A DNA stretch of 40,133 nt from a virus (lineage: Duplodnaviria; Heunggongvirae; Uroviricota; Caudoviricetes). The notes under the pieces are model-generated. The model was not told the DNA's origin. It ran no database searches and saw nothing but the letters and a program-made list of their open reading frames with translations. Below are positions 12,069 through 17,230 of this stretch, one piece after another; the stretch's first letter is position 1; every line of letters starts with the position of its first letter. The position numbers were made by a program, and so were the translations under genes. The DNA lies in IMG/VR virus record IMGVR_UViG_2778261168_000005; one strand, written 5' to 3'.

Positions 12069-12155
12069 CGTAATTACTAATCCGGGGCTATATTTCCGGC
12101 GCGCCAGCAAAATCTGGCGTCGGGATTGGCGTCCCGGATGTTTACGGAGCGATAT

Positions 12156-12178
12156 GAGACGCGCCCGCGTCTTTTTTC
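12156..12178 (+). terminator. intrinsic terminator
   Basis: GAGACGCG-CCC-GCGTCT hairpin followed by TTTTTT. Confidence 0.5.
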
Positions 12179-12340
12179 ATATCGTTTGCACAGTCACATT
12201 CGCGATTTATGGCGGGCTGTGTGGGGGAGCCGAAAGGCTCGCCGGTTTCCGTACCCGGTTACGCCAACCCTGCACAGTTCGCCACCAGTTCGATTGGCGT
12301 CGTTGGTGGCGATAATTTCCAAATGTACGGAGTTATCGTT

Positions 12341-12886
12341 ATGACCACTCAAATCTCTGTTGAAACTCTCTCCCCGATCACCCATAACCAGGTCCCTGTT
12401 ATTACCACCGAACTTTTGGCGCAGCTTTATGGCACCGAAATTCTGAATATCCAGGTTAACTTCACCAGAAACAAAGAGCGTTTTGTCGAAGGAAAGCACT
12501 TTTTTAAAGCATCGGGTGAAGAATTAAAAAATTTGCGACTTACTTTAAGTAAGTCACAAAATCCCATCTCTCCCAAAACCCGCTCGCTTATACTCTGGAC
12601 AGAACGCGGAGCAGCCCGCCACGCCAAAATGCTGGAAACCGATCAGGCGTGGGAAGTGTTCGAAAAACTGGAAGACAGCTACTTCAATCAGTACGAGAAA
12701 GAGCGGGCTATGGGCAAAATAAATATCGATTTTCACCTGGCGATCCGTGACGATAAAACCGCTTTCATCCGAAGTTATGCGCCAGGTCAGCTGGTGACGG
12801 TTGAAGAAGCACTGACTTTGCTTAAATCGCGCGGATGGCTGGTAATGCCACGAGATGAACTTGCCGGAAAATTAATGGAGCTTTAA
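12341..12886 (+). CDS. phage antirepressor-like protein (ORF6N/KilA-N-type N-terminal domain)
   Basis: 181 aa from ATG 12341 (SD GGAG); N-terminus ...ELLAQLYGTEILNIQVNFTRNKERFVEGKHFF typical of ORF6N antirepressors; upstream part of the 225-aa ORF lacks a start signal. Confidence 0.65.
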   Translation: MTTQISVETLSPITHNQVPVITTELLAQLYGTEILNIQVNFTRNKERFVEGKHFFKASGEELKNLRLTLSKSQNPISPKTRSLILWTERGAARHAKMLETDQAWEVFEKLEDSYFNQYEKERAMGKINIDFHLAIRDDKTAFIRSYAPGQLVTVEEALTLLKSRGWLVMPRDELAGKLMEL

Positions 12887-12918: not shown

Positions 12919-13101
12919 ATATCGGGTGAACATTGCCACCGGAGATAAAATAATTTGCGGTGAAAGGGAAGTTAAGTAGAATTGCTGCGGGTGCTTGAGG
13001 CTATCTGCCTCAGGCATGAACACCAAAAGGCAGATAGAGAAAAGCCCCAGTTAACATTACGCGTCCTGCAAGACGCTTAACATTAATCTGAGGCCATATC
13101 T

Positions 13102-13161
13102 ATGCGACACATAGAGATTAGCCTCTTACGGACCGAAAGGTCAAGGAGAAGCAGGCTATGA
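13102..13161 (+). CDS. short leader ORF translationally coupled to hok (mok-like)
   Basis: 19-codon ORF whose stop (TGA) overlaps the hok ATG (ATGA); known hok loci have an overlapping mok frame. Confidence 0.35.
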   Translation: MRHIEISLLRTERSRRSRL

Positions 13162-13313
13162 AGCAGCAAAAGGCGATGTTAATCGCCCTGATCGTCATCT
13201 GTTTAACCGTCATAGTGACGGCACTGGTAACGAGGAAAGACCTCTGCGAGGTACGAATCCGAACCGGCCAGACGGAGGTCGCTGTCTTCACAGCTTACGA
13301 ATCTGAGGAGTAA
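13158..13313 (+). CDS. hok: Hok/Gef-family type I toxin
   Basis: 51 aa MKQQKAMLIALIVICLTVIVTALVTRKDLCEVRIRTGQTEVAVFTAYESEE, near-identical in pattern to E. coli HokC/Gef as recalled; strong terminator downstream. Below ORF-track cutoff. Confidence 0.85.
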   Translation: MKQQKAMLIALIVICLTVIVTALVTRKDLCEVRIRTGQTEVAVFTAYESEE

Positions 13314-13382
13314 GAGACCTGGCGGGGGAGAAATCCCTCGCCACCTCTCATGTGTCAGGCATCCTCAAAGCACCCGCACTTA

Positions 13383-13409
13383 ACCCGCTTCGGCGGGTTT
13401 TGTTTTTCA
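13383..13409 (+). terminator. intrinsic terminator of the hok transcript
   Basis: CCCGC-TTCG-GCGGG hairpin followed by TTTTGTTTTT. Confidence 0.7.
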
Positions 13410-13488
13410 TGAATAAGGGATTAATAATTTTAACTGAAGTTATATTACCTTGTGGCCCGATAAGTTAATTAATTATCAATGCGCCTGT

Positions 13489-13623
13489 ATTGTTTGCATT
13501 GTTTGCATTGTTTGCATTGTTTGCATTGTTTGTATTGTTTGTATTGTTTGTATTGTTTGTATTGTTTGTATTGTTTGTATTGTTTGTATTGTTTGTATTG
13601 TTTTTATTATTTGCGTTGTTTGT
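13489..13623. repeat. tandem array of about 15 copies of a 9-bp unit (ATTGTTTGC x4, ATTGTTTGT x9, two degenerate)
   Basis: Direct reading of 13489-13623; the in-frame ORFs across it (CIVCIV... / CLHCLH...) are repeat artefacts without RBS. Confidence 0.9.
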
Positions 13624-15340: not shown

Positions 15341-15700
15341 ATGCGTATAGAGTTTGTTTTGCCTTACCCGCCGACGGTGAACACCTACTGGCGTCGTCGT
15401 GGCAGCACATATTTTGTATCAAAAGCCGGTGAGCGTTATCGCCGTGATGTGGCGCTTATTGTTCGCCAGCAGCGACTGAAATTAAACCTGTCCGGAAGGC
15501 TGGCGATAAAGATCATTGCAGAGCCGCCGAATAAGCGCCGTCGTGACCTGGACAATATTCTGAAAGCACCAATGGATGCACTGACACATGCGGGGTTGCT
15601 TATCGACGACGAGCAGTTTGATGAAATTAATATTGTGCGCGGTCAGGTCGTTCCTGGTGGTCGGTTGGGGATAAAAATCACAGGGCTGGAGTGCGCATGA
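15341..15700 (+). CDS. rusA: Holliday junction resolvase RusA
   Basis: 119 aa; matches RusA pattern (PPTVNTYWRRRG..., KRRRDLDNILKAPMDALTHAGLLIDDEQ, GGRLGIKITGLE). Confidence 0.85.
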   Translation: MRIEFVLPYPPTVNTYWRRRGSTYFVSKAGERYRRDVALIVRQQRLKLNLSGRLAIKIIAEPPNKRRRDLDNILKAPMDALTHAGLLIDDEQFDEINIVRGQVVPGGRLGIKITGLECA

Positions 15701-16386
15701 ATAACCAGTATTTACAGTTTGTTCGTGAGCAGCTCATTATCGCCACCGCCGATTTGAGTGGGGCAACAAAAGGTCAGCTTGAAGCCTGGCAGGAGAATGC
15801 CATGTTCGATACAGGGCGTTACAGGCGTAAAAAAATCCGGTACCGCGATGAAGTGACTGGAAAAATGATCACGCGGGATAATCCACCAATCCCGGGGAAA
15901 CAATCGCTGGCGAAGGGGACGTCAATTCCTCTGGTAAGTCAGGTTGAGTTTTCGACATCCTCATGGCGACGGGCTGTTCTGTCTCTTGAAGAACCTCATA
16001 AAACCTGGTTGTTGTGGTGTTACAGCGGAAATATTTGCTGGGAGTATCAGGTCACCATAACCCGCTGGGCATGGGAAGAGTTTAAGGCTCATTCTGGCAA
16101 CAGGAAAATTGCAGAGAAGACACGGGAACGCCTGAAAAAATTAATCTGGCTGGCGGCGCAGGCAGTAAAAGCAGAACTTTTTGGCGGGGAAGGTTATGAA
16201 TACCAGGATCTGGCATTACTGGCGGGAGTGACAACTAAAAACTGGTCCAAAACATTTACTGGTCACTGGGTTGCAATGAAACACATTTTCCACCAGCTGG
16301 ATAGTGAGGCTTTATTGTTGGTAATGAGGACGCGTTCGGAACAAAAGGCGGCATTTTCAAAGCAAAGTATTGCAAAAGTAGATTAA
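15697..16386 (+). CDS. putative late-gene antiterminator (Q-like)
   Basis: 229 aa from ATG 15697 overlapping rusA stop (ATGA), SD GGAG; sits between rusA and a strong promoter plus terminator. Assignment by synteny, not recognised sequence. Confidence 0.45.
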   Translation: MNNQYLQFVREQLIIATADLSGATKGQLEAWQENAMFDTGRYRRKKIRYRDEVTGKMITRDNPPIPGKQSLAKGTSIPLVSQVEFSTSSWRRAVLSLEEPHKTWLLWCYSGNICWEYQVTITRWAWEEFKAHSGNRKIAEKTRERLKKLIWLAAQAVKAELFGGEGYEYQDLALLAGVTTKNWSKTFTGHWVAMKHIFHQLDSEALLLVMRTRSEQKAAFSKQSIAKVD

Positions 16387-16929: not shown

Positions 16930-17157
16930 AGATAAAATATTAAGTAAGTCACAATTTTGTCGATTAATAATTGTTTTATTTAAGTGCGATTTGTTAAAAA
17001 GTTACAGCATGGTGAATCCCCCTCAGCGGCGGGGCATAATGACCGTCAGGTTGGGTTGCATTAGCGATAGTAGCAAGCAGCGGATTCTGTCTGGTCATTG
17101 CAGAATTCACCGGGAGGCACCCGGCACTATGACAATGATGGTAGTAAATGCGTATAC

Positions 17158-17185
17158 AAGCCCCTCATCCTGAGGGGCTTTTTTA
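17158..17185 (+). terminator. intrinsic terminator
   Basis: GCCCCTCA-TCC-TGAGGGGC followed by TTTTTT. Confidence 0.6.
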
Positions 17186-17230
17186 TTATGTGTGGTGAGT
17201 CTGAGGGGGGATGAATCAACTCATATGCTG

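Follow-up and report, generated by a model that had tools for sequence, protein, structure and literature searches.

The stretch of viral DNA analysed here (40,133 nt, referred to as the window) very probably carries an intact type I toxin-antitoxin cassette of the hok/Sok family, HokD subtype, within a lambdoid Escherichia prophage, where it lies in the nin interval between P and Q. hok/Sok is a textbook type I toxin-antitoxin system, and the locus itself is already known, HokD being catalogued and the enrichment of hok in prophages published; as a discovery it therefore carries little weight. What the analysis yields is an intact hokD cassette annotated in full at the level of coordinates, with a predicted Sok gene, where genome pipelines mark only the toxin CDS. 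The complete unit extends from about 12955 to 13408. A first delimitation of the module, 13095-13410, took in the toxin, the mok leader and the terminator but left out the promoter and the first ~106 nt of the mRNA (12989-13094), the part that holds tac, the metastable hairpin and ucb.

The toxin is encoded by an ATG-initiated ORF of 51 codons at 13158-13313 on the plus strand, whose translation is the one given in the initial annotation, preceded by a Shine-Dalgarno (SD) sequence AAGGAG (13143-13148, +) that was read from sequence and is kept in the family alignment (28 loci from Escherichia, Kluyvera, Citrobacter, Pseudocitrobacter, Photorhabdus, Pantoea, Erwinia and Kalamiella). A protein search matched the ORF to all 42 positions of the Pfam PF01848 (HOK_GEF) profile at 82.9 bits (E=1.2e-23), far over the gathering score of 22, so this is no chance ORF; PHROG 251, 'MokW-like host killing', matched at 113.5 bits. 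The hallmarks of Hok/Gef proteins are present (~50 aa, a hydrophobic N-terminal helix and a conserved RKDLCEV core), with residues 6-24 hydrophobic and TRKDLCEV kept in all intact relatives. The Hok/Gef membership proposed for this ORF thus stood up, but its closest paralogue is another one than HokC/Gef, the toxin it had been said to match. Judged by sequence and by NCBI naming, the toxin belongs to the HokD subtype: HokD is the nearest named toxin (50/51 residues, or 98%, in common with the canonical WP_000813254.1 of K-12-like genomes, P49S being the sole change) and HokC/Gef the second-nearest (~84% identity). At least 1000 contigs carry the identical 51-aa sequence, deposited under the name 'type I toxin-antitoxin system toxin HokD'. 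The only NCBIfam Hok models to respond scored below their cut-offs (NF007279 subfamily, 51.4 vs 73; NF007290 HokA equivalog, 40.3 vs 89), and because they describe other Hok subgroups, we did not file the toxin under either.

The coding region further holds a TACG motif at the Tyr47 codon (13296-13299, +; read from sequence), a potential site of TadA A-to-I editing that would change Tyr to Cys. The TadA TACG motif has been defined (PMC5630033), and TadA editing recodes Tyr to Cys in hokC, hokD and hokE, reaching ~6% at the homologous codon of K-12 hokD (PMC5630033, PMC12214031). UACGAA was invariant in the 28 relatives, and Tyr47 TAC aligns with Cys46 of HokB while Cys30 is hard-coded, which fits a TadA-edited hok motif. 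In the local fold the UACG was unpaired and lay outside any defined hairpin loop (z=-0.09), with no clear tRNA-like loop.

The predicted full-length mok-hok mRNA (~418 nt; 12989-13406, +) was delimited from the start of an Rfam match, promoter geometry and the terminator. RF01794 matched at full length over 12989-13160(+) with 108.3 bits (gathering score 59), finishing on the hok AUG, and its start is the G six bases 3' of TAGAAT (12977-12982). This hexamer would be the -10 box of a candidate promoter (12955-12982, +; TTGCGG at 12955-12960, 16-nt spacer, TAGAAT) read from sequence; it aligns with the -10 box of R1 hok, TATGAT, which is experimentally defined (PMC9841398), and it is shared with phage Rac, the sequence farther upstream diverging. 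A generic sigma-70 consensus scan flagged neither the hok nor the Sok promoter, the former because its -35 matches at only 3/6 positions. The scan did flag TGAACA-16-AATAAT (12927-12954), which we rejected as the hok promoter: it would put ~28 nt 5' of tac, and it is not conserved with phage Rac. A terminator downstream of hok had been noticed in the first reading, and the terminator scan places it at 13382-13408 (+), with a 7-bp stem containing 5 GC pairs (13382-13399) followed by a T-run.

Folding of 12989-13406 gave a minimum free energy (MFE) of -175.4 kcal/mol (z=-9.8 vs shuffles), with the 5' end closing onto the 3' UTR. The fold-back elements raised for this locus by the initial annotation were found in this structure as tac, the translational activator (GGGUGCUUGAGG; 12989-13000, +), which forms the mRNA 5' end and is near-invariant in the 28 relatives, and fbi, the fold-back inhibition element (CCUCAAAGCACCC; 13363-13375, +), the two being joined in the MFE fold by twelve pairs with one bulged A. 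This helix is conserved and covaries: it was 86.9% paired over the 28 relatives, falling to 33-58% when the 3' partner was slid by 1-3 columns, and one of its pairs is UA in 16 loci, CG in 9 and UG in 3. A strong tac duplex was present at the equivalent 3' UTR position in 27/28 relatives; the exception was the K-12-type hokC, which diverges from the family just 5' of fbi, at a site where an IS186 insertion has been reported (PMC3562002). The 3' UTR also forms a hairpin at 13320-13343 (+; local fold -19.4 kcal/mol, z=-4.9) that is present across the family alignment. As a separate observation, an isrK-like match fell on the hok 3' UTR below threshold (27.4 bits vs 50) and seems to reflect the generic similarity of a hairpin followed by a terminator.

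Each of the alternative conformers known from R1 is likewise encoded here. The sequence UGAGGC-UAUCU-GCCUCA (12996-13012, +; local fold -10.2 kcal/mol) would form a metastable co-transcriptional hairpin and corresponds to a transient structure described for R1 (PMC9841398). The ucb, or anti-SD, element AAGCCCC (13042-13048, +) pairs with tac in the isolated 5' hairpin and, when the full-length mRNA is folded, with the region of the mok SD; the tac/ucb stem (12989-13048; isolated fold -26.8 kcal/mol, z=-4.8) is helix 1 of the Rfam consensus. Helix 3 of that consensus is the sokT hairpin (13090-13125, +; local fold -14.1 kcal/mol, z=-4.0), in which the mok SD GAGG (13090-13093) is paired with dcb GCCUC (13121-13125) and the mok AUG lies inside. 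The MFE fold of the 3'-truncated mRNA contained no tac/ucb stem, the metastable hairpin appearing instead, and for this reason we infer the conformational switch by homology.

Translation of the leader identified mok as an ORF of 19 codons (MRHIEISLLRTERSRRSRL; 13102-13161, +) with its own SD, GAGG, at 8-nt spacing, whose TGA (13159-13161) overlaps the hok ATG (13158-13160) as ATGA; this is the short leader ORF that had been described as meeting the hok ATG. In nearly all relatives the mok ATG lies 56-58 nt 5' of hok, and across the family it occupies three registers. At -58, mok overlaps hok in another frame, as in R1; at -57, it is in frame with hok and leads to an N-extended Hok of ~70 aa; at -56, it gives the 19-codon mok with the ATGA overlap, the form found in the window. 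When 79 phage-borne HokD-type loci were scored (78 viral contigs and the window), 66 were at -57, 10 at -56 and 1 at -58, while 2 were without the 5' half, and all 10 loci at -56 represented one allele, the window's. The annotated mok of phage Rac has 68 codons and overlaps hok; the sokT loop of the window is 2 nt shorter than that of phage Rac, and the resulting change of frame makes mok end at the hok ATG. The hokC loci of E. ruysiae and E. whittamii also have the -56 ATGA form, as do loci of Erwinia and Kalamiella. The R1 mok has 19 codons ahead of the hok start, and mutagenesis of R1 showed that mok translation is required up to the hok start and is dispensable beyond it (PMC9841398), so a 19-codon mok is compatible with function. 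The variable register fits with translation, not the Mok peptide, being what counts.

The sequence elements, the way they are conserved and covary, and the genomic surroundings were observed directly; homology underlies the proposals below on where the transcripts end, on processing at the 3' end, on cleavage by RNase III and on toxicity and biological role. As in R1, a weak constitutive promoter would yield a stable mRNA of ~418 nt, in which the 5' tac pairs with the 3' fbi and ucb holds the mok ribosome-binding site, so that the closed mRNA would be neither translated nor bound by Sok. Slow 3' trimming would take off fbi, after which tac would pair with ucb and the mok SD would shift into the sokT hairpin; ribosomes translating the 19-codon mok would then reach the hok start through the ATGA overlap and enable hok translation. 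An unstable Sok RNA, made from a stronger promoter on the opposite strand, would cover the mok SD and AUG, blocking translation of mok and hence of hok and marking the duplex for RNase III. Should Sok synthesis stop, which could come about by loss of the element or by transcription shut-off, Hok would be made and would damage the inner membrane.

The gene neighbourhood of the cassette is that of a lambdoid prophage. Upstream lie genes for a DnaT-like protein, for a replication protein like lambda P, for a DUF551 protein and for an ORF6N antirepressor, the last preceded by c4-a1b1, isrK and C4 RNA elements; downstream are DUF968, RusA and the antiterminator Q. The cassette thus sits between a DnaT-like/lambda P-like replication module and DUF968-RusA-Q, which bears out the earlier description of a prophage nin-like region, and the best E. 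coli match has an equal gene order in an annotated prophage integrated beside ompW. A 581-nt query around the locus found matches in 4726/5426 complete E. coli genomes, the matched feature being annotated hokD, with a median of 2 and a maximum of 10 copies. Further matches came from 736 plasmids and from 110 phage records, among them those of Stx-converting phages, mEp460 and Rac, in which the annotation reads hok, mok, gef or host-killer protein.

Prophage addiction or abortive infection, the role initially suggested for the module, is plausible by analogy. An infecting phage that shuts off host transcription would deplete Sok, and by this route the mechanism described above might have been selected mainly for abortive infection, or exclusion of other phages, and not for prophage addiction, a reading that we regard as possible but hold with more doubt than belief. 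A 2026 preprint counted 44,248 Hok homologs, of which prophages held 23% vs 5% expected, an approximately four-fold enrichment, and a phage-defence role of Hok is reported (bioRxiv 10.1101/2025.08.07.668861); both speak for such a role, as does the place of the locus among accessory 'moron'-type genes, with a PHROGs category to the same effect. PADLOC, however, gave no defence model matching Hok, hok was found not to be enriched near defence systems (bioRxiv 10.1101/2025.08.07.668861), and sequence does not separate abortive infection from addiction, roles that are not mutually exclusive. The preprint leaves the role that hok plays in prophages to future study, and it cites earlier tests in which chromosomal hok loci gave no post-segregational killing (bioRxiv 10.1101/2025.08.07.668861). 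The cassette may stabilise the prophage, abort infection by other phages or be largely neutral.

We considered separately how the cassette relates to K-12 hokD (relF), which lies in the Qin cryptic prophage. Only P49S separates the two toxins, ~97% identity extends over the hok SD, the coding region, the hairpin of the 3' UTR, fbi and the terminator, and the prophage neighbourhood is shared, with DUF968/ydfU and a Q-like antiterminator downstream. However, the K-12-type hokD matches only from about 13144 of the window on, its 5' half (promoter, tac, ucb, mok and Sok gene) being replaced by relBE, whereas the window cassette is complete; K-12 hokD is reported to have lost canonical components through rearrangement (PMC12214031). 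On this comparison, the window carries the complete ancestral version of K-12 hokD, and it reveals what the truncated copy lost.

The fate of the K-12 copies raises the alternative that the window, too, holds a decaying, silent remnant like K-12 hokA, hokC, hokD and hokE, whose 19-codon mok would be left over from a frameshift and which would never produce Hok. We consider this unlikely. The 19-codon form does arise from a 2-nt shorter loop and is the less common one (10/79 phage HokD-type loci, against 66/79 with a 70-codon mok in frame with hok), and K-12 chromosomal hok loci are reported as inactivated and native chromosomal loci as giving no post-segregational killing (PMC12214031; bioRxiv 10.1101/2025.08.07.668861). 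However, every element destroyed in the K-12 copies is intact in the window, namely tac, ucb, the SD and AUG of mok, the promoter and hairpin of Sok, fbi and the terminator; this includes the whole region 5' of about 13144 that is missing from the K-12-type hokD and the fbi just 5' of which the K-12-type hokC diverges. In addition, distant lineages (E. ruysiae, E. whittamii, Erwinia and Kalamiella) have the 19-codon ATGA form too, and mok translation past the hok start is dispensable in R1 (PMC9841398). An intact cassette remains our preferred reading.

The Sok antisense RNA that controls known hok loci had not been placed by eye in the first reading. We predict such an RNA on the minus strand, from about 13108 to 13036, which has its own promoter as well as a terminator hairpin. 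The predicted promoter (13115-13144, -), read from the minus strand, consists of TTGACC (13144 to 13139), an 18-nt spacer and TAATCT (13120 to 13115), the -10 box agreeing with the consensus at just 3/6 positions. In an alignment, these hexamers occupy the positions of TTGCGC and TATCCT on the antisense strand of the R1-type IncFII locus, which we take, by their promoter geometry (17-nt spacer), to be the Sok promoter there; the -35 TTG and the -10 TANNNT were kept in most of the 28 relatives. The predicted RNA (~70 nt; 13036-13110, -), whose ends are predictions too, would start at G13108 or G13110, ~6-8 nt past the -10 box, and would comprise a 13-15-nt 5' tail (13108/13110 to 13096), a hairpin (13095 to 13043) and the U-run UUUUCUCU (13042 to 13036). 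The stretch to which it would be complementary takes in both the SD (13090-13093) and the AUG (13102-13104) of mok, as is expected of Sok. Its fold (-31.7 kcal/mol, z=-5.2) is supported by compensatory changes in 7/16 pairs of the hairpin (RNAalifold), and over the 28 relatives the helix was 95.8% paired when read on the minus strand, where there were 64 G.U cells and 0 A.C, vs 76.4% for the plus-strand reading, a strand bias as expected for a functional antisense-strand terminator hairpin. The R1-type IncFII locus served as a stand-in for R1 and is 4-5 nt shorter, so R1 coordinates, such as the mok AUG at 116-118 (PMC9841398), carry over only to ~5 nt. The start of Sok is likewise uncertain by ~5 nt, since the published 'sok target nt 65-131' (PMC3562002) would set its 5' end flush with the -10 box.

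Covariance models were run on both strands and found the hok leader on the plus strand but gave no Sok family match on the minus strand, where a permissive Rfam scan returned no meaningful curated family and scored RF01794 at 17.6 bits, at another position and at the level of noise. Taken literally, RF01794, titled 'sok antitoxin' and matching at full length with 108.3 bits, would put the Sok RNA on the plus strand at 12989-13160, which can hardly be right: the match starts with tac and finishes on the hok AUG, as the hok mRNA leader does, an RNA from the mRNA's own strand is unable to pair with that mRNA, the central helix has its G.U pairs only on the minus-strand reading and is followed by the U-run on that strand, and the minus-strand score is noise. 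We thus take RF01794 to model the hok mRNA leader and keep the predicted Sok gene on the minus strand. Because the Rfam 'sok' model reports the sense-strand leader, automated annotation assigns Sok to the wrong strand.

Compared with the R1/IncFII hok/sok (parB) system, the order of elements and the architecture are equal to those of the window: the -10 box, tac, dcb and fbi align with the R1-type locus, as do the mok ATG, the hok SD and TACGAA, and the Sok hexamers are at homologous positions. The R1 Hok, in contrast, is only distantly similar, the coding regions aligning poorly; the R1 mok has 70 codons in an overlapping frame with its ATG at -58, whereas that of the window has 19 codons, the ATGA overlap and its ATG at -56; and the Sok hairpin of the window has a 16-nt apical insertion relative to R1. 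R1 hok/sok is plasmid-borne with demonstrated post-segregational killing, whereas the copy in the window is prophage-borne and known from sequence. The hokC (gef)/mokC/sokC loci of E. coli and other Escherichia belong to the same family and have the same layout, with ~84% protein identity, and those of E. ruysiae and E. whittamii share the 19-codon ATGA mok; hokC is nevertheless a different paralogue at a chromosomal, non-prophage site, its Sok hairpin is shorter, being without the 16-nt insertion, and its -10 region differs. The hok/mok loci annotated in phages ('MokW', 'host killer protein', 'gef phage maintenance protein'; for example in Rac MN652886, mEp460 and Stx-converting phages) have 86-95% DNA identity over the cassette and share its position upstream of the Q region. 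They differ in the sokT loop, 2 nt longer in phage Rac, where it results in the 68-codon overlapping mok, and the sequence of the sokT loop and the Sok 5' tail varies among phage alleles.

This variation was concentrated in one place. Across an alignment of 74 phage-borne loci, selected for toxins of 98-100% identity, the column entropy of the untranslated regions peaked at 13094-13111 (0.65-0.81 bits), the segment made up of the Sok 5' tail and the sokT loop, and was <=0.49 bits over the rest of the 5' UTR and, as far as the terminator stem, over the 3' UTR; the 79 scored loci held 17 distinct variants of this segment. Diversification of antitoxin specificity between co-resident copies would fit this variability, but relaxed constraint could also explain it; we regard it as a lead and not a finding, and the diversity of Sok-loop alleles together with the three mok registers offers modest leads on cross-talk among multiple hok/Sok copies. 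Tentatively, the diversity of the Sok tail and sokT loop and the drift of mok through three registers may reflect selection for mutually orthogonal recognition between Sok and hok. If so, each co-resident lambdoid prophage, in genomes that hold up to 10 copies, would keep a private antitoxin and would not be rescued by the Sok of its neighbour, and the 19-codon ATGA allele of the window would represent one specificity class.

Among phage-borne hok loci chosen for encoding 98-100% identical Hok toxin (L057-L136), we found 17 variants of 13094-13111, the interval that covers the 5' tail of the predicted antisense RNA Sok and the loop of sokT, the hairpin that holds the AUG of the leader ORF mok. 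With the terminator tail left aside, no other stretch of the transcript varies as much in these loci as this Sok 5' tail and sokT loop, and the position of the mok ATG is itself allele-dependent (-56, -57 or -58). Within the toxin gene, the Tyr47 codon carries a TACG TadA editing motif (13296-13299) that did not vary in 28 aligned relatives, ranging from Escherichia to Photorhabdus/Erwinia; for K-12 hokD, low-level editing of the homologous site has been reported (PMC12214031, PMC5630033).

Directly upstream of hok lies a P1/P7-like antirepressor control module (12088-12886), in which the c4-a1b1 targets (12088-12140), isrK (12101-12177) and the C4 antisense RNA (12205-12289) come first and an ORF6N anti-repressor gene comes next (12209-12886; PHROG 2379, 265.6 bits). 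On the other side, the AT-rich spacer directly past the hok terminator holds a 9-bp tandem repeat of 15.3 copies (13486-13623; consensus TGTATTGTT, variant TGCATTGTT). Of 5426 E. coli genomes, only 28 contain DNA resembling this repeat region, and the matches there carry no annotation; the unequal lengths of the matched spans (about 250-308 bp vs. 361 bp) suggest that repeat copy number varies. Further downstream, past the Q antiterminator gene (15691-16386), the STnc100 sRNA family is matched over its full length at 16978-17190 (110.3 bits vs. a gathering score of 47).

The genome collection also lists hok fragments nearly identical to the E. coli type under unrelated genera, on very short contigs: a 275 bp contig of Acinetobacter idrijaensis (L018), a 431 bp contig of Xanthomonas pisi (L024) and a Candidatus Scatousia MAG (L056). 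These three loci most likely reflect assembly contamination and not true hosts.

RNA family matches also fall in the hok cassette itself. The isrK-like covariance-model match in the hok 3' UTR (13322-13403, plus strand) is sub-threshold (27.4 bits vs. 50, E=5.8e-4) and probably represents a generic two-hairpin-plus-terminator similarity. The Rfam model named 'sok antitoxin' (RF01794) scores on the hok strand only, at 12989-13160 (plus strand), and stops at the AUG of hok. Pipelines that annotate automatically from this model would thus assign Sok to the wrong strand, and the Sok so annotated would come out ~100 nt too long.
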